Assembly: GCA_050014495.1 (NCBI GenBank)
Contig: JBEKDF010000015.1
Span: 1 to 64,000 of the forward strand
Source: Candidatus Bathyarchaeia archaeon
Lineage (GTDB): Archaea > Thermoproteota > Bathyarchaeia > TCS64
Length of the DNA stretch: 64,000 bases
Reading direction: 5' to 3'
In this document: one piece after another, positions 1 to 10,020 of the stretch
How the letters are laid out: each line of letters opens with the position of its first letter
How positions within the stretch are numbered: position 1 is the stretch's first letter
Position numbers and translations under genes: made by a program
The notes under the pieces: model-generated
Seen by the model: only the letters and a program-made list of their open reading frames with translations
Databases searched by the model: none
Told to the model about the DNA's origin: nothing

Positions 1-191
1 TGAGTCATGACGAATCCATCTTGGAACATTAGGGCCATTCTAAAACACTATAGAATACTGGGGCCCTAATGGAATATATATCGCGTGCGTCGTCGCTACA
101 ATATATTAGGTTGTCTAAATCTGCGCGCGCGGATAAGATTTTCATCACACATCACTGTGTATGAATTAAAAAAACCGAACATGAAAAACGG

Positions 192-818
192 TTAGACATT
201 CATCCACTTATCGTAATGCAGTTTCTCCTCCAGCGATACAGCCTTCTGTTTAATCAGATAATCCTCAGGATAACCTATCGGAATAGCAGCCGCCACCTCG
301 TAGCCATCAGGCACACCCAACAACCACTTGAGGGAAGCCGTCTCGCGAGGCACACTGGTAACCCCATACAACCCCTCCGCCGCCATCGCCAACAAGATAT
401 TCTCAATACACATCCAAATCGAGGCCAAATCATTCAGATCATAAAGAATCTCACACTCCTTGAGGGGCTTCCTCAGCCTATAGCAGACGACGAGCAGCTC
501 CGGAGAACTCACCAGCATCTTCTCCTGAACGTGTAACGCCTTGCTGTACATCTCTTTCTGTAGTGGATCTGTCCAGTTACCTAGTGTCTTTTCAAGCTCC
601 ATCTCGTTCGTGATATTCTTCGCCTTTGAGACCAGCTCAGTGACTTTTTTCCTCTGCTCAGCGTCTTTAATGAGGATGAACTCCCACTGCCGTAGGTGGT
701 TATTTGAGGGGGCCTTGAGTCCTGCCTCTAGGATTCTTTGGAGTTTCTCTTTTTCTACGGGTTTTGTTTGGAACTTTCTTACGCTTCTTCTGTTGTTTAT
801 GGCTTCATAGAGATCCAA
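192..818 (-). CDS. Nitroreductase family protein (cassette cargo)
   Basis: N-terminal RRSVRKF and APSNNHLRQWEF nitroreductase motifs; IENILLAMAAEGLYG. Confidence 0.9.
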   Translation of the reverse strand: MDLYEAINNRRSVRKFQTKPVEKEKLQRILEAGLKAPSNNHLRQWEFILIKDAEQRKKVTELVSKAKNITNEMELEKTLGNWTDPLQKEMYSKALHVQEKMLVSSPELLVVCYRLRKPLKECEILYDLNDLASIWMCIENILLAMAAEGLYGVTSVPRETASLKWLLGVPDGYEVAAAIPIGYPEDYLIKQKAVSLEEKLHYDKWMNV

Positions 819-884
819 TTACCATTCGCCTCTCAACGTTTGTATGATATGTATGTATTTGCACGCGTGGTCCACCCATAAAAC

Positions 885-926
885 AATCACTGGTTGAGTA
901 TCAGGTGGAAGTGAGGATAAGGCTAT
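885..926 (+). repeat. Cassette-boundary site copy R1 (AATCACTGGTTGAGTATCAGGTGGAAGTGAGGATAAGGCTAT)
   Basis: Exact 17-mer core AGTGAGGATAAGGCTAT at 910-926; intergenic. Confidence 0.95.
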
Positions 927-964
927 AGCCGCAAACCCACACACACACTTGCTTACGATCACAA

Positions 965-1429
965 CTAACTAACACTAACCAGTATCCGTTTTTCCATGTA
1001 GACTCTGTCGTATCCCTCTTCAGATACAAGCCCAATATTCTTCCAACCCAGATGCTCGTAAATAACCTGATTCTCAACCATCATAACATTAGTGTAAAGA
1101 CGCATTACTCTATATCCCAACTTTAAAGCCTCAGACTCAGCGAAATCAATTAACTTTCCGCCAAACCCTCGACCCTGATACCTCGGCTTAATAGCAACAT
1201 TTTCAATCAGTAGATATTCCGTCTCAGGCACAAGAACAAGAACTCCCAGTAACTCAGACCCTAGACCTTCAAGGACCCAGATGTTCTTCTGTGTAACTGC
1301 CTCCACGTAATCTTCAAGCATTGGTGCGGGCTCCTTCCCTATTCTCTGTATGTAGAGGGTATACGCGTCTTTAATGCAGGCAGTTATCTCTGGAACGTCG
1401 TTGAGTACTGCACGTCGAATTTGGTGCAT
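965..1429 (-). CDS. GNAT family N-acetyltransferase (cassette cargo)
   Basis: NVAIKPRYQGRGFGGKL acetyl-CoA motif A; probable ATG at 1429 with TTAAATA box ~25 bp upstream. Confidence 0.9.
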   Translation of the reverse strand: MHQIRRAVLNDVPEITACIKDAYTLYIQRIGKEPAPMLEDYVEAVTQKNIWVLEGLGSELLGVLVLVPETEYLLIENVAIKPRYQGRGFGGKLIDFAESEALKLGYRVMRLYTNVMMVENQVIYEHLGWKNIGLVSEEGYDRVYMEKRILVSVS

Positions 1430-1461
1430 CGGTAATCTTATTTTATCATAAATATTTAACC

Positions 1462-1503
1462 ATTCACGAACACGAAAAGGTTGGGTTTGGGGGATAAGGC
1501 TAT
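1462..1503 (+). repeat. Site copy R2 (degenerate; ATTCAC...GGATAAGGCTAT)
   Basis: Exact GGATAAGGCTAT 1492-1503, with ATTCAC at the same 42-bp spacing as other copies. Confidence 0.8.
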
Positions 1504-2042
1504 GTCTCTGAAGAGCGTAGAATCCCAATTTGTCCAGGGTGCGTGACACGCCTCTGCTTATCCTCAGAGGAAAGAACCCCGTCTATCTTCTCCGCCAAGT
1601 ACTCCCAGTCATGCAAATAAATCATGCCCCACTCCTCTCTCCTGTACACCTCTACGATCGGCTTGAACTTGAACCACATAAGATGGACCCCCAGGCCAAC
1701 CCTCCACACGGTTTCCAAGTCTACTAAGCCAGTCCTGTACTGCCACCCGATCTCGTTGCATAGGTCGAAGAAGTGTTCGCGTAGGATGTAGTTCTCGGGG
1801 TTTACCCTCGAATCGTATTTTCTCTTGAAGTCGTCTGCGTCTGTCCACTGCATGGAGAGGAGCTCGGCGTAGTCTCTCGCCCCTTCGCGGCCGAATGTGG
1901 TGGTCATCAGGGCTAGCGAGAACGTTGCTTTTCTGTTCTTCGTCGTTTCCCTCAGGTTCACTATGTAGAACGCCGCTGCTACTAGTACTCCTGTGGCGGC
2001 TACCATGTAGTAGGCGGCCTGAATCTCACCTAGATCAACCAT
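1500..2042 (-). CDS. Membrane-anchored protein, DUF4760-like (paralog of 3444..3950)
   Basis: N-terminal TM helix then soluble helical domain (GWQYRTGLVD, WFKFKPIVEVYR, WEYLAE); stop codon lies inside site R2. Confidence 0.75.
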   Translation of the reverse strand: MVDLGEIQAAYYMVAATGVLVAAAFYIVNLRETTKNRKATFSLALMTTTFGREGARDYAELLSMQWTDADDFKRKYDSRVNPENYILREHFFDLCNEIGWQYRTGLVDLETVWRVGLGVHLMWFKFKPIVEVYRREEWGMIYLHDWEYLAEKIDGVLSSEDKQRRVTHPGQIGILRSSET

Positions 2043-2050
2043 AATCAATA

Positions 2051-2092
2051 ATTCACCTGATTACACTCAGGTAGAAGTGAGGATAAGACATT
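2051..2092 (+). repeat. Site copy R3 (ATTCACCTGATTACACTCAGGTAGAAGTGAGGATAAGACATT)
   Basis: AGTGAGGATAAG exact; ACCTGA/TCAGGT internal inverted repeat. Confidence 0.9.
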
Positions 2093-2248
2093 CGCCCGTC
2101 AAATACTTGTACGTTAGATGAGGCTAATGCCAAAGAGACTTTGGGATAAGATTTTCTGGTGTAATGTGAAACGTAGGAGAAGATTTTAATTAACAAAAAT
2201 CTTTATTCTTCAATGAACACGGAATAGATGACTCTTTGGTGATTCTGG

Positions 2249-3325
2249 ATGGATGAGGAATACCAGAGGCTCGCGGAACACTTAGACCACCTCCCAGACG
2301 GCTTCCCACCGAGTAAAACCTCAGCCGAGATACCCCTCCTAAAGAGACTCTTCACATCCGAAGAGGCAAAACTAGCTGTACATCTAACACTCAACAGAGA
2401 AGACGTACACACCATAGCGAGTAAGGCGAGCCTACCAGTGGAGAAAGTCAAGACCACCTTAGAAGAGATGGCCAGAAAAGGACTCATATTTCAAGCTCAG
2501 GAAGACGACCAAACAAAGTACCAAGCCGCACCATTCGTCATAGGAATCTACGAGTTCCAAGTAAACCGACTGACAGATGGCTTCCTCAAAGACCTGGGCA
2601 ACTACTGGAGCACCCAGGAGCAGCGCGACGAACCCAAGTCTATAAGCCAGATGAGGACCATCCCAATAAACGAGAGCATAGACACCCGACTCGAAGTACT
2701 ACCATACGAAAACGTCGAAGCACTAGTTGATGCCCACACTAAATTCGGGGTAGCATCATGCATCTGCAGGAGTAGAGCCAAGAAACTCGGCAAGGGATGC
2801 GACGCTCCCACTGAGACATGCCTATTATTTGGAGACTTCGCCGACTTCTACGTAAGAACTGGGAAAGGCAGATACATAACAAAGGATGAGGTCAAGGACC
2901 TACTTCATAAGGCAAATGAGGCAAACCTAGTCCTCAATCCAACAAACTCCAAGACTGTACAGGCGATATGCTGCTGCTGCGGATGCTGCTGTGGCATACT
3001 TAATGACCTCAAATACTCTCCTAACCCCTCTGAGGCATGCGCTAGCTCCTTCATCGCGCAACACGACGAATCAATATGCATAGCGTGCATGAAGTGCATC
3101 GACCGTTGCCAGATGGAGGCAATCACTGAGGACTCGGGCGTAGTCAAGTTCAACCAAAATAGATGCATAGGCTGCGGATTATGCGTGTCAACATGTCCAA
3201 CAGGGTCCATGAGCCTAAAGAGGAAATCTCAAGCGGACAAAGAGCTACCTGAGACATTCTTTGATACGTGGAGACTTAATGCACGGCAAAGAGAAGACGC
3301 CAATGTAGATACACACATGCATTAA
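2249..3325 (+). CDS. 4Fe-4S binding protein with N-terminal HTH-like region (inverted cassette cargo)
   Basis: CICR, CCCCGCCC and two ferredoxin motifs CIACMKCIDRC, CIGCGLCVSTCP. Confidence 0.9.
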   Translation: MDEEYQRLAEHLDHLPDGFPPSKTSAEIPLLKRLFTSEEAKLAVHLTLNREDVHTIASKASLPVEKVKTTLEEMARKGLIFQAQEDDQTKYQAAPFVIGIYEFQVNRLTDGFLKDLGNYWSTQEQRDEPKSISQMRTIPINESIDTRLEVLPYENVEALVDAHTKFGVASCICRSRAKKLGKGCDAPTETCLLFGDFADFYVRTGKGRYITKDEVKDLLHKANEANLVLNPTNSKTVQAICCCCGCCCGILNDLKYSPNPSEACASSFIAQHDESICIACMKCIDRCQMEAITEDSGVVKFNQNRCIGCGLCVSTCPTGSMSLKRKSQADKELPETFFDTWRLNARQREDANVDTHMH

Positions 3326-3397
3326 AACTATGCGTGTGCTTCAGTTACAGCCACCATGCAGAAGGTGGCTTGAATCTTTGCTGAATCAACCATTACA

Positions 3398-3438
3398 ATT
3401 CACTGCTTATGGTTAGGTGGAAGTTTGGATAAGGCTAT
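3398..3438 (+). repeat. Site copy R4 (ATTCACTGCTTATGGTTAGGTGGAAGTTTGGATAAGGCTAT)
   Basis: 15/17 match to core; between convergent gene ends. Confidence 0.92.
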
Positions 3439-3443
3439 TGAGC

Positions 3444-3950
3444 CTATGTCAGCAACTCGGGATGAGACGCCATGTAATCCATGAGTCTCCCGTAGACATA
3501 CTCCATCTCGCTCATGTAGCGACTATAATCGATCTCCTTTCTATACTTCTCAATCTCGGGCCTAAACTTCTCCCACAACCTCCTAGTCGGCCCAGCACAG
3601 TACAATGCGATCAGTTTAATGTCAACTAGATTCTCCCTGACGAGGACCCCGATCCCCTCCCACGTGGAGACGATTACTTGAAGTGACACTGCTTTTTCGG
3701 GATCGTTGATTCTCTTGGCTTTGAAGTCTTCGTAGCTATTCCATTTCGCTGAATCGATGTTTATTAGGTGTCTAGAAAATTCCTCGCTGCTGGTATTGCT
3801 GTGGAGCATCATGAAGAGTTGGGCTTCCCTCGTCTGCAGGGTCGCCTTCATGTTCCTCTGCTGGGATCGCAGGGTCATAATGTAGTAGATGGCCGCAACC
3901 GTCACGCTTGCCGCAGTGACCAATACTCCAATCGTCTGCGCATCGACCAT
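3444..3950 (-). CDS. Membrane-anchored protein, DUF4760-like (paralog of 1500..2042)
   Basis: TM helix VTAASVTVAAIYYI; WEGIGVLVRENLVD, LWEKFRPEIEKYR, MEYVY. Confidence 0.75.
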   Translation of the reverse strand: MVDAQTIGVLVTAASVTVAAIYYIMTLRSQQRNMKATLQTREAQLFMMLHSNTSSEEFSRHLINIDSAKWNSYEDFKAKRINDPEKAVSLQVIVSTWEGIGVLVRENLVDIKLIALYCAGPTRRLWEKFRPEIEKYRKEIDYSRYMSEMEYVYGRLMDYMASHPELLT

Positions 3951-3952
3951 AG

Positions 3953-3993
3953 AATCACTGGCTACAATCGGGTGGAAGTGAGGATAAGGCTAT
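3953..3993 (+). repeat. Site copy R5 (AATCACTGGCTACAATCGGGTGGAAGTGAGGATAAGGCTAT)
   Basis: Exact core at 3977-3993; fills almost the whole intergenic gap. Confidence 0.95.
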
Positions 3994-4004
3994 TGAAGAA
4001 GTAG

Positions 4005-4835
4005 CTACTTTACGAATCTAATGTCGAGACCGTTGACCTTCTCACGATCCAAAGCCACCATGTTCTCATTTGCCTCCCCGAGCAATCCATTCATCCTTAG
4101 AACCTTCTTCGCAGTACGCAGCGACTTGACACCTATGGACACGGATCTAATTGAGTAATCTCTGGAGGGCGTAAACCTCAGAGTCGGGCTCCTGCCAATC
4201 ATCCACGAATCCCCATCAGGCTTCAATGGACTGAGCAGGGTCTGCCAAGCCCTCATATCTCTCTTCACGTCCTTGACCCCCAACTCGATCTCCTTCACAG
4301 CCTTAGCCCCAAGCAAACCACCCCCAGCCGCATCAAACCTCGCCTTCATGATTCGGTTATGATCATCAAGATCCCTCGCCTCGGGAGCAGACGTGAAGGA
4401 CCTGAAGGCGAGCTGAGTAAACGTGCTGAAGTCGAGCATAATCTCCTTGAACAGTGGGGCTTGAAGCAGTACATCCCTACCCCACTCGGTCTCTTGGCCT
4501 GTCTCATCGGGCATCTTCGACGCATCGATCTTGTAGGAGATGCCTCTCTTATCGAGCTCTTTGATGCATCGATCGTAATTGATAGGTTGCATTTCTAAGA
4601 TCTGTAGCTTCGCTGGTTTACTGCTCATCAGGTAATCCTTGGGGTGGAACGTCAGAAACTTGAACCAGACGTTACCCATGTATATGCCTCCTCCTCTGAA
4701 TGATCCGTGGTCGGCTGGGGCGAAGTCCTCTGGGAGGCCTAGTGTGTTTGCGAATAGGTAGTGGAGTTTGTTTGCGTCTCCTGCGGTCTCAACTACGCCG
4801 TATATGCCTTGGATTCTCTTCACGATTGGGGCCAT
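4005..4835 (-). CDS. VOC/glyoxalase-like protein (cassette cargo)
   Basis: LFANTLGLP, GGIYMGNV, ELDKRGI, EIELGVKD pattern of VOC folds; start 4835 (ATG) or 4844. Confidence 0.6.
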   Translation of the reverse strand: MAPIVKRIQGIYGVVETAGDANKLHYLFANTLGLPEDFAPADHGSFRGGGIYMGNVWFKFLTFHPKDYLMSSKPAKLQILEMQPINYDRCIKELDKRGISYKIDASKMPDETGQETEWGRDVLLQAPLFKEIMLDFSTFTQLAFRSFTSAPEARDLDDHNRIMKARFDAAGGGLLGAKAVKEIELGVKDVKRDMRAWQTLLSPLKPDGDSWMIGRSPTLRFTPSRDYSIRSVSIGVKSLRTAKKVLRMNGLLGEANENMVALDREKVNGLDIRFVK

Positions 4836-4911
4836 AAAATTCACGATTTCTCATAGTATTATCATCATTTAACATTTACCTCAAATTTGGGAAAAATAGT
4901 TGTTCTCGAAT

Positions 4912-4937
4912 TCAGTTGGGAGTGAGGATAAGGCTAT
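4912..4937 (+). repeat. Site copy R6 (TCAGTTGGGAGTGAGGATAAGGCTAT; left arm lost)
   Basis: Exact core at 4921-4937; between divergent genes. Confidence 0.92.
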
Positions 4938-5026
4938 AGCCCCAAATGGCACAACCTGGTCCAATGAGAGCTGATTTTAAGGAAAAGTTATAACTGAATC
5001 AGAAGAACTCTAAACTGGTGTTATGA

Positions 5027-5515
5027 TTGCCATCTACTGGTCAAGCACCACCCCTAAACAGCGAAGAAATTGAATCAATGCTCGAAGAGAACCACTATTT
5101 GAGGATCTGCACCCACAACAGAGACGGAACCATACACGCCATGCCTGTTGCCTATAGGTACTTGAACGGTAAAATATTGATAATGTCCCTCATCAACAGC
5201 CGAAAAAACAGAAACATTGAACGAAACAATGACGTCACCGTGCTGGTTGATACAATGGACCCGTTGAGAGGTATTCTCATCTACGGTTTGGCGGAAATGG
5301 ACTATGACAATGTCTACGAACAGGTTCTTACAATTAATGAAACCAGCCCCGCATTCAGCGGCATGCCTAGAGAAAAGTTGGAGCGTGTCACCAGAGCCTA
5401 TGTAGACGCGTACAAACTCGCGATAGTAAAAATCATGCCACGACGCATCGTAACGTTCGACTTTACCAAAGATGAGGTTTGGGACAATTTCGTCAAAACT
5501 TATCTTCAGGATTAA
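5027..5515 (+). CDS. Pyridoxamine 5'-phosphate oxidase (FMN split-barrel) family protein (inverted cassette cargo)
   Basis: ICTHNRDGTIHAMPV, SRKNRNIERNNDVTV; own BRE/TATA GGAAAAGTTATAA at 4981-4993. Confidence 0.85.
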   Translation: MPSTGQAPPLNSEEIESMLEENHYLRICTHNRDGTIHAMPVAYRYLNGKILIMSLINSRKNRNIERNNDVTVLVDTMDPLRGILIYGLAEMDYDNVYEQVLTINETSPAFSGMPREKLERVTRAYVDAYKLAIVKIMPRRIVTFDFTKDEVWDNFVKTYLQD

Positions 5516-5547
5516 GGGAAACACGTGCGTATTTGCATCAACTATTC

Positions 5548-5588
5548 AATCACTGATTAGAGTCAGGTGGAAGTGAGGATAAGGCTAT
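5548..5588 (+). repeat. Site copy R7 (AATCACTGATTAGAGTCAGGTGGAAGTGAGGATAAGGCTAT)
   Basis: Exact core at 5572-5588; CACTGA/TCAGGTG bulged inverted repeat. Confidence 0.95.
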
Positions 5589-5642
5589 GACCCACACACA
5601 CAAACTAAGGATTCCAGAAAAAATTTAAAAAATGGATTTGAA

Positions 5643-5936
5643 CTACTTCTTCTTCTCTTTATAGTACTGCTCTACGAACTTTCCTGCATCAAGCAGAGGC
5701 ACGAACTTTAGCTTCCCTTCAGGCATGTAGTGGATCACGAGGGCGTTCAGCTGCTCCTCGCTAGGATCCTCGTATACTTGGACGCTTTTGAATTCTCCAC
5801 CGAAGCTATGGGATGCAAATGCAACCTTCGGGAACTTCTTCGATCCCTTTTCTCTATCAGCCATGGCAGACCTGAATTTCTCTATTATCTTTTCGAAGTC
5901 CTCAGGGCAGTACTCCAAAAAACTCATGACTTTCAC
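5643..5936 (-). CDS. Small hypothetical protein, DUF3303-like (cassette cargo)
   Basis: 97 aa ORF with RBS GAGGTGA (5941-5947); C-terminal KFVPLLD pattern. Confidence 0.65.
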   Translation of the reverse strand: MKVMSFLEYCPEDFEKIIEKFRSAMADREKGSKKFPKVAFASHSFGGEFKSVQVYEDPSEEQLNALVIHYMPEGKLKFVPLLDAGKFVEQYYKEKKK

Positions 5937-6091
5937 TTTATCACCTCACATCTCTTTTGGTACTTGTATAGCTCCCCAACCCGGAGCCGAGGTTCTACTA
6001 TTTTTTCATTGGAGCAGAACCTTGTTTGATGAGGGATAGGGCTTGCCTATAGTTTTATTGGTAAATAATCCAGAATTATTAGAATAATTTT

Positions 6092-6120
6092 GTATCAGGT
6101 GGAGGAGAGGATAAGGCTAT
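6092..6120 (+). repeat. Site copy R8 (GTATCAGGTGGAGGAGAGGATAAGGCTAT)
   Basis: 15/17 core match preceded by TCAGGTGG. Confidence 0.9.
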
Positions 6121-6257
6121 TGAGTGATTGATGTAGCTACCAGCAATTAGTAGGCAGGTTAAATCACATCAATCAAGTGTCAAATCTTCAGTTTCCCACT
6201 TGTGCCTAAAAAATTGGATAATTAATTTTCTTTTCCCCACTATTTATATATACTTTT

Positions 6258-7136
6258 CTATTCCACAACATTGCCAATTTCCTCAAGGAACTCTTTTAAA
6301 TGTAGGATATTTACAATACAAATATCCAGTTTTCTATGTTTGTTGAGAATAGAATGATCATTAATTACATTTTCCGATAGACTCACGGGCAACCATAAAG
6401 ATCGTGGAAGACTGAATCTATAAATTGCCCAAGGTACCTCAACCAAATTAATATCATTAACATTAGGAACCACTCCCTCTTCACTAATCTTTGAATTTGG
6501 AATATCCAAAACACAGATTTTAGCAGCTGTAGTTATTACTGGAAAATACAAACGACCCCTACCAGGCGATTCAATATTAGAAGACGCTCTTTTCATATAT
6601 GAAAAATCATCATTTATCACACCCAATGTCGCAATGCTAGCCTGTTTCGCCCCTTTTCTAATTTCACTATCCCCTGATCTTTTATCCTCATCACCTTCCT
6701 TACATAATTCATGGCTATCAACGGATATTGCATTTGCATAAATGCCTCGATCTGTTTGAAGACGAATCAAACTTTGACAGTGAGCCCAAGCTCTGTCCGT
6801 CGCACGATTATATTGTAAATGAAATTGAAAATCACCTCTACGCTTCGAGTCATCATGATGCGTAAGCACAAAAAATCCTCGTGTAGACAATTTTCGGAAT
6901 AATATCCATTTTTTATGTGAAGCCCGTCTAGCCTCGATCAAAGCGAATAAATTATCACGCCATGCCTTGAAGTCTATTGATGTTTCCTCAACTGGAAGGT
7001 TACTTGGATCAGGTAAGACAGAAACAGCGTAATCAATGTTAAAATTCCAGTGGACCTGTTCTAACTGTTCTGCAACTTTCATTTCAAAAAGGTAGCCCGT
7101 TTTTTCTAAGCCATCCCAATAATTAGAGCGTGACAT
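6258..7136 (-). CDS. Hypothetical protein, possible PD-(D/E)XK nuclease fold (cassette cargo)
   Basis: GYLFEMKVAEQL...SIDFKA...LIEARRA resembles the E...D...ExK nuclease signature; AT-rich. Confidence 0.55.
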   Translation of the reverse strand: MSRSNYWDGLEKTGYLFEMKVAEQLEQVHWNFNIDYAVSVLPDPSNLPVEETSIDFKAWRDNLFALIEARRASHKKWILFRKLSTRGFFVLTHHDDSKRRGDFQFHLQYNRATDRAWAHCQSLIRLQTDRGIYANAISVDSHELCKEGDEDKRSGDSEIRKGAKQASIATLGVINDDFSYMKRASSNIESPGRGRLYFPVITTAAKICVLDIPNSKISEEGVVPNVNDINLVEVPWAIYRFSLPRSLWLPVSLSENVINDHSILNKHRKLDICIVNILHLKEFLEEIGNVVE

Positions 7137-7325
7137 TATAGTAATCTAAGATATTTTTGTTAATAATGTTTATAAAATGTAGCATACTCACATTTGGCTG
7201 ACATTCACTCAACCGTCTCCTACTCTGATGTGCCTAGGATGCGCGAGCGCACTCACACTGAAAGTTTCTTTGGCGAATGGAAAAATCGTATAGTAAACGG
7301 GCCAAGCACATGAGCAACCTTTCCC

Positions 7326-7523
7326 CTAGTTGGATGCAAATTCAACAACTAGCAAAATAACTCCAACAAATGCCATTCCCATCCCAAGATAAATTGCCGT
7401 GTTCACGTCTATGAATCTGGTGTTAGTTTTAGATCTAATCTTCGTCACTAATGCGATTACTATTCCAGTGAGAAGTAAAATAATGCCTAGTCTACCAAGA
7501 ATCGAACTATACCACATGGACAT
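7326..7523 (-). CDS. Small 2-TM membrane protein
   Basis: 65 aa with two hydrophobic helices; TTTAAATA box at 7552-7560. Confidence 0.6.
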   Translation of the reverse strand: MSMWYSSILGRLGIILLLTGIVIALVTKIRSKTNTRFIDVNTAIYLGMGMAFVGVILLVVEFASN

Positions 7524-7624
7524 CTTTTTCGATAATTACTCAGTAATTGCTATTTAAATAGGTTAAAGACAAGCAACCCTGAGCCTCTTGATGGAGGGAC
7601 GGTGATATTGGCGCATAGAGATGT

Positions 7625-7648
7625 GGGGCGGAGTGAGGGTGAGGCTGT
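7625..7648 (+). repeat. Recombinase-proximal degenerate site copy R9 (GGGGCGGAGTGAGGGTGAGGCTGT)
   Basis: 14/17 core match at 7632-7648; all three differences are A>G transitions. Confidence 0.7.
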
Positions 7649-7890
7649 GAGGCCCCACGACATCTACGCGTGCTATTCCTGCGAGTTGAATAAAGTCACG
7701 CCATGCAAATACAGAAGGCGAGCCCGCTTCATGAGTAACCTGGACCAGTGGGCTAAATGCTCACACATATCTTAGTATGGGATGCGCGCGCGGATGATAG
7801 ATTATCTGCTTCATCCCTTTTGCGAGTTATGTCAACCATTAAAAGCGGGCGAGCTTAGCCTTGAGGAAAACTGGGCATATCCTTTGTAAT

Positions 7891-9270
7891 TTATTGATGA
7901 TGACCTTGGTCATTCAGGTTTTCCTCCTTTTCTGTTTTCGCCTCAAGGCCATAATCAGATAGGTTATTCATTATTTGATCAACCTCATCCCTAGATTCAT
8001 AGCCGAAGCCATGGTTCCATGCTATCACTTCCAGACATCCTCCTCTGCTAACTCTACACCTAATCTCCTTGGGTTTTCTAGGATAATACTTGCCACTGAG
8101 AACCTCGGGGAGTCTTTCACCGGCTAAATCCTTGAGGGGCTGAAGCATCCCCTTTTCCTCAAGACTTTTAGTTGTTCCGTCCGCCACTTTATTCTGTAGA
8201 ATCGTTATCTCCTGAGTTGTGAAGATTTGTTGGATGGTGTTTAGCTGGGCTTCGATCGAAGCCATGCGGGTTTGGTTGTTCCTCATCTCTGCGTCGTGGG
8301 CTTCAAGTTCCCTGATCTTAGCTTGAAGGTCCTCGACCTCCCCGGCGTCAACCTTCGAGGGGTCCTCTGAGAGAACGTTAAGCCACCTCTCTGCCTTGCG
8401 GTACTCCCTCCGGGTGTAGTCGATGTCCTCCATTGCCTTGTTGTAACCGAGGGGATCGACGACGTGTCCCATGAAGAACTCCGCCGCTAGGCTGTCGGCT
8501 CCGGACTTGTGCCACCTCGTCCTGAATGTGTCACGTAACTCATGGGGATTCTTGCCGTACCTCACACTTTTTCCTTGTCTAGTTTCGATGATTCCTAGTT
8601 TCTTCAGTGTCCAGGTCCAATACTGGGCGATGATCTTCTCGGTGATCGGTGTTCCCTTCTAATTTACGAAGATCGAACCCCCGACGTTAGGTCACGTCTT
8701 CATGTAGAACATTATGGCGTCTATAGCGTCGCGTCCGAGGAACGTATGGTATGAGCGCCTATTCTTCAGCTTCTTTCTGCCGGGAAGGTCAACCCTGATG
8801 GGTCGAACTCCAGCGTCTAGTTGCTTTTTAAGGTCAGCCAACCGGGCGTTGCTCCACTCCACCACCTCGCTGCATCCCATTCCTCCGGAGACCATGCATA
8901 GGAAGACCGCCCGGTAGAGTCTGTTGCTCTTAACAACCGCTTTTCTGATTTCATCATGGGTTAGGGAGCCGACGACCGGTGGCACTTCAACGCTGATCCT
9001 GAAACCCGGGTCGCGTGGAAGCTCAGCCCTATTATGCAGGAAGAAGGACTTCACTGCTGAGTAGTATCTCTCCTTGCTCTTCGCCCTACCCCTGATGGTT
9101 CTCATCCAGCCCTCAACGAGGTCGAGGACCCGATACCTGTCATCCCCCGCCGCCCTCTTCTGATAGGCTACAAGCTCATCGGGGGACAATCCCGATTGGT
9201 CTTCCCCATTCTCGGCCATCCACTCCATGAACTTCAGTAGCACATAGAAGTGTGCGAAAAAAGTGTTCAT
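7891..9270 (-). pseudogene. Tyrosine recombinase/integrase, interrupted by two in-frame stops (TGA 8692-8694, TAG 8659-8661); N-terminus probably truncated
   Basis: ORFs 8692..9423 and 7891..8565 share one frame; joined protein has YYSAVKSFF, LTHDEIRK, DLPGRKK, HELRDTFR (HxxR), FFMGH, LGYNK (Tyr nucleophile). Confidence 0.9.
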
Positions 9271-9447
9271 TTTAATACGGGACCGCCATGTAAATACCGT
9301 AGGACAGTGATACCAAGGGTGATTCAACAAACGTCGCGGAACGCTAGGCTCACACATACACTTCATCTCTATAGAATAATAGAACGTAGAGCTGTGAGTT
9401 TCAACAACGTTTTTATGAATCAACCCCGGCTAACTTGAGGCGATGCG

Positions 9448-10020
9448 ATGTTCAACTTAGTTACTCTTAAGGACACAATAAGAATAAGTCCGTCCAAATT
9501 TGGCCAACCTCTCGATGCCGCCGCCTACGATGAGCTCCGTGGCAAGTACGAAGGGCTCGTTGACGAGGAACTTGGCTACGTTATCTCAGTAATAAAGGTC
9601 GAAGTCAACCCCATCGGTCGCATCGTCCCAGGCGATGGTGGAACACACCACCAGGTTACTTTCAGTATCATGACCTTCTTCCCACAGCTCCAAGAGATCG
9701 TAGAGGGCGAAGTTGTAGAGGTCGCTGATTTTGGAACCTTCCTCAGGATAGGTCCAGTTGATGCCCTTCTCCACGTTAGCCAACTCATGGATGACTTCAT
9801 AAGTTACGACGAGAGGCAGGGCGTCCTCCTCGGGAAGGAGAGTGGACGAACCATCCAGAGAGGTGACCTCTTCAGGGTTAGGATGGTTGCTGTGAGCTTC
9901 CCCAAGGGAAGAAGCTCGGGTAAGATAGGTGTCACAGCTCGCCAACCTATGCTGGGAAAGATCGAATGGATAGAGACAGAGGTCAAGGCGATGGAAGCTC
10001 CCAAGGAGGAGAAGAAGTAA
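9448..10020 (+). CDS. rpoE1: DNA-directed RNA polymerase subunit E' (Rpo7)
   Basis: EGEVVEVADFGTFLRIGPVDALLHVSQ S1 domain; RQPMLGKIEW. Confidence 0.97.
   Translation: MFNLVTLKDTIRISPSKFGQPLDAAAYDELRGKYEGLVDEELGYVISVIKVEVNPIGRIVPGDGGTHHQVTFSIMTFFPQLQEIVEGEVVEVADFGTFLRIGPVDALLHVSQLMDDFISYDERQGVLLGKESGRTIQRGDLFRVRMVAVSFPKGRSSGKIGVTARQPMLGKIEWIETEVKAMEAPKEEKK

Follow-up and report, generated by a model that had tools for sequence, protein, structure and literature searches.

The tyrosine-recombinase pseudogene near the beginning of the window, the 64,000-nucleotide stretch of DNA analysed here, is probably the dead integrase of its own island, which was inserted at the 3' end of the gene that precedes rpoE'. 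The host is a Bathyarchaeia archaeon, as judged from the names on the homologues and from related records. In its features, the family of the broken gene corresponds to integrases carried by small integrated elements that use many targets other than tRNA genes, resembling the cryptic integrated elements (CIEs) of Thaumarchaeota. Below, we present the evidence for the island and its attachment (att) site, the relation of the integrase to the neighbouring repeat array, the active site of the family and the decay of the gene.

The island and its attachment site

The features that define the island are the following.

7891..9357, minus strand: tyrosine-recombinase (integrase) pseudogene, 488 codons with 2 internal stops, recognised by PF00589 and homologue alignment
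1..9395, no strand: right-hand part of the inserted island, running off the contig start
9387..9395, plus strand: attachment-site core TAGAGCTGT, right end of the island, from cross-genome junction comparison
C37:28828-28836: second copy of TAGAGCTGT at the 3' end of the target gene, giving a 9-bp direct repeat
9448..10020, plus strand: rpoE' (SHS2_Rpb7-N plus S1), first host gene beyond the island

In 12 of the 16 relatives within the genus that carry rpoE', the promoter of rpoE' is directly preceded by the end of a conserved gene (241 aa), which we take from its motifs to encode an HTH plus phosphoribosyltransferase protein; the site is empty in these 12, holds an insertion with a remnant of the integrase 5' end in three and coincides with a contig end in one. 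In the host genome (G000), 380 bp separate the end of this target gene, which has TAGAGCTGT as its last codons and a changed stop, from the end of contig C37, and the integrase starts 30 bp inside the att core in the window. Because the 9-mer occurs 23 times in the genome, the assignment of the att site rests on the cross-genome junction comparison. The two island ends lie on different contigs, C37 and C15, and a comparison of contig-end overlaps gave no join between them. Since positions 1-124 of the window are identical to C40:820-943, the island probably continues into C40 and C91, two contigs that carry more co-oriented 26-bp repeats.

The three relatives with an insertion differ in what they retain. 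G073 shows both junctions; its cargo of 4.4 kb is a different one, and its remnant of the integrase 5' end breaks off at a (GC)n run. G067 and G072 have kept about 220 bp at the site, including an integrase remnant. A DNA search found no intact integrase at the rpoE' site among 17 genus relatives. Runs of (GC)n were seen at breakpoints at window positions 123-130 and 7784-7791 and in locus L041. A non-coding segment of about 90-190 bp just 3' of the integrase (7576-7768), which ends near the run at 7784-7791, recurs on at least 5 other contigs of G000 and in several relatives.

Two further junctions were mapped for intact members of the family. The paralog on contig C29 of G000 (C29:22774-23892; L001:2775-3893), a protein of 372 aa with 38% identity to the pseudogene, lies inside a conserved gene, presumably of M20-peptidase type by its motifs, and splits it, the 5' part of that gene being found at C61:965-1250. 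The gene start is 110 bp inside the junction, and the element has a 6-bp direct repeat and AT-rich ends similar to those of the pseudogene island. The second member, in G074, is intact. Its junction lies in another gene, which we assume to be AhpD-like, and the integrase begins some 20-45 bp further inside; only one junction of this element was found. Two of the three mapped junctions split the 5' part of a gene, without restoring a 3' end. In the same genome, L144:10149-13638 holds an intact integrase followed by an ORF that looks primase/helicase-like by eye, together resembling a small plasmid-like element. Integration into tRNA genes was considered as a rule and rejected, as 3 of 115 family loci had a tRNA and 20 loci gave one Rfam match.

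The family occurs in 26 of the 79 genomes of the order, with 0-5 matches per genome and varying sites, in 6 of 301 phylum genomes (G000 included) and on three viral contigs, and a member was also seen next to a primase-like gene; internal stops were found in 4 of the 38 family matches across the 79 order genomes. In L121, L116 and L129 (74-78% nucleotide identity) and in L084 and L085 (78%), the upstream DNA is unrelated from about 45 bp before the start codon, and the copies in L076 and L080 share a common insertion site.

As in the CIEs of Thaumarchaeota (PMC6563490), the direct repeats are short and the sites were recognised from empty versus filled alleles. The integrase is the sole common gene of the CIEs, 14 of 68 of which reside in 3' ends of protein-coding genes, and the main text of that source, in which the words 'arginine' and 'catalytic' are absent, describes no active-site change. 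In our case a direct repeat is present at both ends (which lie on separate contigs, with C29/C61 as a second case), the site is empty in relatives, and the integrase lies beside one end.

In the proposed course of events, a circular form of the element would have recombined across the 9-bp overlap into the 3' end of the host gene, the junctions being observed and the chemistry presumed. After integration, the integrase would have decayed in all four genomes that retain the insertion, and the island site may then have acted as a sink in which accessory genes collected, some of them with the promoter-like repeat at their head. We thus propose that integrase and repeat array are adjacent because both share one island.

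The 26-bp repeat and its relation to the integrase

The initial annotation had taken the integrase for the recombinase of the array, and the array for one frozen, or served in trans, since the death of the gene. The array in the window consists of the following copies.

901..926, minus strand: 26-bp repeat copy, promoter-like on this strand
1492..1503, minus strand: degenerate copy, core only
2067..2092, minus strand: copy heading a DUF4760-like gene at 1500-2048 (weak Pfam match, E 0.005)
3413..3438, minus strand: copy heading a decayed DUF4760 gene start (family D4)
3968..3993, minus strand: copy heading the DUF4760 gene at 3444-3950
4912..4937, minus strand: copy
5563..5588, minus strand: copy
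6095..6120, minus strand: closest copy to the integrase, whose stop is about 1.8 kb away

Positions 3336-3393 hold the decayed DUF4760-like 5' end behind its repeat, 3' of a ferredoxin-domain gene. Between array and integrase (6258-7136) there is a low-GC ORF of 292 aa that has no Pfam match and looks restriction-endonuclease-like by eye.

The best reading of the 26-bp repeat, as examined by spacing, folding and core motifs, is that of a promoter or gene-start module. It has 133 matches in G000 at 2 mismatches and, at a looser setting, 169 sites in co-oriented clusters on 47 of the 92 contigs. Of the 17 other genomes in the genus, 12 have the repeat, as against a single occurrence in 61 genomes from outside the genus. 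After setting aside the 62 sites without a downstream ORF, 107 sites could be scored; the TTATC of the repeat lies 37-40 nt before the start codon at 64 of these, and 51 of the downstream ORFs begin with M/L-V-D, like the DUF4760 genes in the window. The host gene rpoE' has a TATA-like TTATG 35 nt before its ATG. The attC core pair RYYYAAC...GTTRRRY was found at none of 166 repeat sites, and single-stranded folding was no better than for shuffled sequences (58 sites sampled; mean z +0.40 on one strand and +0.35 on the other). A palindrome, CACCTGA-N6/7-TCAGGTG, was rejected as recombinase core site, as only 5 of 169 sites come near it, and a partial likeness of the att cores to 5-mers of the repeat was judged to be chance.

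The attribution of the array to the integrase was not supported, given the att site of its own, the spread of the repeat over 47 contigs and the missing attC features. Nor is there support for a freezing of the array by the death of the gene, as the insertion site is empty in repeat-rich relatives, namely in six genomes with at least 8 repeats (G062, G069, G071, G074, G075 and G076). When homologues were inspected for the same repeat, a convincing copy was seen in 1 of 110 other family loci, most of them from lineages without the repeat, and the three relatives with integrase remnants (G073, G067 and G072) have no repeat at the site.

It remains to weigh whether the family shuffles promoter-like repeats in another way, with intact copies such as the one on C29 acting in trans on repeat-bounded units, in an integron-like system without attC. 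We consider this unlikely. In its favour, the clusters of repeats are gene-sized and share one orientation, 19 of 169 sites have an upstream stop codon that overlaps the edge of the repeat, and both family genes of G000 lie 1.4-1.8 kb from a repeat, a vicinity (within 2 kb) that makes up 9% of the genome. Of the repeat-rich genomes of the genus, 6 of 8 carry a family gene, whether intact or decayed, as compared with 2 of 10 repeat-poor ones (Fisher p 0.054); for intact genes alone the counts are 3 of 8 and 1 of 10 (p 0.27), with kinship and assembly size uncontrolled in both comparisons. Against this, the repeat-rich genomes G062 (24 repeats, 85% complete) and G069 (32 repeats, 88% complete) have no family gene detectable at E 0.001, and in genus g12 the gene is found in 13 of 32 genomes and a single repeat match in 1 of 32. 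The sparse occurrence at other family loci points the same way, as do the intact gene of G074, 65 kb from the nearest of 47 repeats, and the three mapped junctions, all of which fall outside the repeat. Apart from a false match to an unrelated protein, PF00589 recognises 12 tyrosine recombinase genes in G000 (13 matches in all), and 5 of the 12 are within 3 kb of a repeat, a zone that makes up 11% of the genome (p 0.007). Three of these five are unrelated to the family, and closeness to the repeat therefore marks accessory DNA in general.

A second promoter-like dispersed repeat, with the core TTTAAGCGGTGATGC, heads genes in other Bathyarchaeia lineages (loci L095, L117, L124, L125, L082, L099 and L111). 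Of 113 family loci, 20 contain it, and in L095, L117, L124 and L125 copies in inverted orientation bracket the integrase, which speaks for shuffling in trans; but the repeat does not track the family across the 79 genomes, with 19 copies and no family member in G022 and family members without a copy in G047, G049, G051, G054, G055 and G056. The bracketed integrase of the four loci resembles an insertion-sequence unit of 1.4-1.5 kb, and the homology between L117 and L124 begins at the 5' edge of the repeat. In addition, repeated ACAGTT boxes and an inverted ATAACTGT by a TATA-like box are found upstream of the integrase in L095, L114, L115 and L117, and are candidate integrase binding sites.

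For the copy in the window, we thus retain the reading as a dead integrase of its own island, with the repeat as accessory cargo of the proposed sink.

The active site of the integrase family

When read through its stops (X at both), the integrase passes PF00589 with 30.5 bits against a cut-off of 27.1. This agrees with its first description as an atypical tyrosine recombinase, as does the absent Arg of box I. A database search for the family gave 184 matches at E 0.001, of which the best 120 were used. Among these, the closest homologues are P0042 (67% identity) and P0044 (62%). The homologue alignment holds 155 homologues, that is, the C29 paralog and 154 database proteins, with the distant P0040 and P0041 left out. 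The positions of the active site are as follows.

8875..8877, minus strand: box I position (Arg in canonical tyrosine recombinases), here Gly, from an hhalign profile alignment
8773..8778, minus strand: Arg-Lys of the PGRKK loop, candidate stand-in for the first Arg (Arg-I) and likely catalytic Lys
8533..8544, minus strand: HxxR motif, with His at 8542-8544 and Arg at 8533-8535
8443..8466, minus strand: second His (8464-8466) and catalytic Tyr (8443-8445), from the homologue alignment

At the usual place of Arg-I the sequence reads SGGMGCSE, as had been noticed earlier, and is without Arg. A profile alignment with ten other recombinases (eight from G000 plus P0040 and P0041) placed the Arg-I column at the second Gly of this motif, in its GMGCSE part (hhalign probability 99.9). 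Among the 155 homologues, 102 have Gly and 52 Asp in the same column and none has Arg, and an Arg in a neighbouring column was found in 12 of 156 rows. Because no homologue has Arg-I, its absence is, by sequence comparison, a family trait and not decay. The remaining catalytic residues are strictly kept, with the Arg of the GRK loop in 155 of 155 homologues, the Lys that follows it in 154, and the His and Arg of HxxR, the second His and the Tyr each in 154 (with one gap). Another divergent tyrosine recombinase of G000 (C13:27548-28894; L151) likewise lacks Arg-I (SQDSGD) and has R-x-K in the loop and KRLRH instead of HxxR.

Further, the family is under purifying selection by its codon substitutions: dN/dS is 0.077-0.27 for the 32 family locus pairs with dS up to 0.7, which are not independent of each other, and its median over all 359 pairs is 0.41, the remaining 327 pairs being near saturation. 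An AlphaFold2 model of P0042, the closest intact homologue, has a pLDDT of 92.6 and matches the folds of XerA, Cre, IntI4, SSV1 Int and lambda Int with Z 13-18 (best match 4a8e, Z 18.1, rmsd 9.4, 245 aligned residues); these matches therefore establish the fold, not the subfamily. In this model the GRK Arg sits just past the strand at 185-189.

An Arg shift has a precedent in the bacterial integrase IntDOT, which has no first Arg and in which a downstream Arg functionally replaces it (PMC8138268); the first Arg is also shifted in the IntDes subgroup (bioRxiv 10.1101/542381). Both IntDOT and IntDes are bacterial and have arm-binding domains, and the likeness is an analogy in the mode of action. 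Since the GRK Arg is invariant and IntDOT provides the precedent, we infer such a shift here: the Arg of the PGRKK loop, which the initial annotation had named as a possible stand-in for the first Arg, is the best candidate and likely substitutes for Arg-I in catalysis. Intact members of the family are presumably active and would cut with the C-terminal Tyr across an overlap of 6-9 bp, the GRK-loop Arg serving in place of Arg-I.

Alternatively, the family could be catalytically dead, with its members acting as DNA-binding regulators or recombinase helpers and the junctions made by other enzymes. Arg-I belongs to an otherwise strictly kept catalytic set (PMC8371274, PMC8138268), and the recombinase-fold phage repressors SroF and MrpR appear low in the fold-match list. 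Moreover, the phage psiM2, discussed below, was not observed to integrate according to bioRxiv 10.64898/2026.10.07.757236. However, the two His, the Arg, the Lys and the Tyr nucleophile are invariant at about 35-50% identity, the family gene lies 20-110 bp inside three mapped junctions, and the loss of Arg-I is accompanied by a new invariant Arg, all of which makes a dead family very unlikely and favours active enzymes with a moved Arg.

The comparison with known archaeal integrases revealed two related cases. The best match among 50,697 phage records is the integrase GahPV1_gp31 of Geoglobus ahangari pleomorphic virus 1 (BK065157; 26% identity, E 1e-25), which is a proviral gene in Archaeoglobales (PMC10919331). 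Its box I is likewise without Arg, an Arg stands shortly before the loop Lys, and HxxR and GH..D.LGY are present, but it differs in having R-x-K and not adjacent RK. The second case is ORF29 of the Methanothermobacter viruses psiM100 (AF301375; L157:513-1721) and psiM2 (AF065411; L163:316-1524), with no box I Arg, R-x-K in the loop, an otherwise identical catalytic set and 24-25% identity to the family, on a long branch of uncertain tree placement. The prophage psiM100 is integrated, with its annotated attL core 48 bp upstream of ORF29, and its target is not a tRNA gene (PMC8371274). For these phages the target is intergenic, whereas the pseudogene island targets the 3' end of a gene. The integrase of psiM2 has been called inactive (bioRxiv 10.64898/2026.10.07.757236); if its 'inactivating mutation' is the missing box I Arg, that feature would be a trait of the clade. 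A quick tree of 56 rows has the 38 family rows on one side of a branch (SH-aLRT 87) and the GahPV1 group as their sister (SH-aLRT 93); this tree has long-branch warnings, contains no IntI, SSV, pNOB8 or SNJ2 rows, and its deeper placement is unsure.

The family differs from other archaeal types in several ways. Suicidal integrases of the SSV1/pTN3 type have their att site inside the gene, KxxR and PF16795 (PMC8371274), whereas here the att core is outside, 30 bp upstream, the motif is HxxR and PF16795 is unmatched by both the pseudogene and the C29 paralog. Integrases of the pNOB8 type have a YxxR motif with Arg-I (PMC8371274), in contrast to HxxR and no Arg-I in the family, and no SNJ2-type integrase was found among the best 20 of 21 phage-collection matches at E up to 1. 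Finally, the XerA resolvase model NF040815 gives the C29 paralog 33 bits against a cut-off of 220, and unlike XerA, which is conserved and single-copy, the family has 0-5 matches per genome in 26 of 79 genomes, at varying sites.

Decay of the gene and meaning for the family

The integrase gene in the window is a genuine pseudogene. Its stops and ends are the following.

8692..8694, minus strand: nonsense codon TGA; the column is Arg in 142 of 155 homologues
8659..8661, minus strand: nonsense codon TAG; the column is Gln in 104 of 155 homologues
9268..9357, minus strand: intact N-terminal segment with motif V..W.SR...T, Trp at 9286-9288
7891..8230, minus strand: long C-terminal tail beyond the coiled coil, boundary approximate

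The observation that TGA and TAG interrupt one continuous frame was borne out: both share the frame that ends at TAA 7891-7893 on the minus strand, and contigs from runs X1, X5 and X6 span both stops with 0 differing letters. The proposed origin of the stops by C>T changes from CGA and CAG fits the Arg and Gln columns of the homologues, an AGA ancestor being equally one step away from TGA. As the pseudogene deviates in only 2 of 64 well-conserved columns (homologue median 3), it broke recently.

An active integrase, with stops that either arose in assembly or are decoded as Sec or Pyl, is highly improbable. TGA and TAG are the two recodable stops, and the check was made on assembled contigs and not on raw reads, all from peat metagenomes of perhaps one campaign, with X1 as possible source run, X5 and X6 not so marked, and the X7 contig, which ends 14 nt beyond TAG, left out of the count. 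Nevertheless, identical letters in three runs, an ARAGORN list of G000 without a tRNA with UCA or CUA anticodon, the identity of the two columns in homologues and the decay of the same element in G073, G067 and G072 all argue for a dead gene.

The N-terminus had been thought to break off at about 9255; the gene is not truncated there, as the frame matches homologues upstream to about 9357. Upstream of 9270 it extends as ...TVFTWRSRIKMNT, in agreement with the family motif V..W.SR...T, whose W is kept in 126 of 130 homologues with a residue at that column and whose R is kept in 112 of 132, and the segment is nearly letter-identical to those of P0042 and P0044. The likely start is ATG 9357, with TTG 9330 as alternative. 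At the other end, extra sequence after the catalytic Tyr, as described before, is indeed present, the tail of 183 aa being the longest of 155 (median 83). No significant homologue of this tail was found among proteins of 30-122 aa or in Atlas, and a by-eye likeness to the tail of P0042 was rejected, as BLASTP gave no support.

That the integrase is a true IntI and the repeats attC sites is scarcely credible. Integrons do exist in archaea (bioRxiv 10.1101/2022.02.06.479319), a row of single genes in one orientation, set off by repeats and next to a tyrosine recombinase, gives a superficial likeness to integron arrays, and IntI4 (2a3v) is among the fold matches of P0042 (Z 15.5, tied with Cre). 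However, the integrase has no IntI-type insertion and an att site of its own, and the 16 NCBIfam families that 37 members match include no model specific to integron integrases; the repeat, spread over 47 contigs, has neither attC core pair nor attC hairpin, and, across the genomes compared, integrase and array show no consistent linkage as for IntI. The missing extra segment before HxxR, already pointed out from the sequence, is reflected in the Lys-to-His spacing of 77 residues in the integrase and a family median of 79, as compared with 72 in XerD and 107 in IntI4; the spacing exceeds 100 in 3 of 155 homologues. Insertions of 10-35 residues at alignment columns 240-285 of P0014, P0019, P0028, P0031, P0033 and P0037 lie near the position of the IntI-specific insertion, without visible sequence likeness to it.

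As a decayed island integrase, the broken copy is in itself ordinary, and with its assignment to an island of its own the repeat arrays of Bathyarchaeia lose their obvious candidate enzyme. It is doubtful, and indeed improbable, that an undescribed archaeal moved-Arg clade both inserts into many genes and recombines promoter repeats in trans; if true, this would be integron-like gene shuffling in Bathyarchaeia without attC or IntI, served in G000 by the C29 paralog. Our literature searches found no paper describing an archaeal integrase clade that lacks Arg-I, and Table S1 of PMC8371274 may already hold the clade in an unnamed family, such as fam30-08. What gives the family its significance is that a large integrase clade, with 184 matches, has lost a residue of a strictly kept catalytic set, and the moved Arg would be a second case of the shift seen in IntDOT, by analogy with that enzyme. 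The loss of Arg-I explains why the Pfam scores of such genes lie close to the cut-off or beneath it, and the genes may be mis-called inactive, possibly including ORF29 of psiM2. The mapped junctions of 6-9 bp together with the intact paralog make the chemistry of these integrases directly testable.
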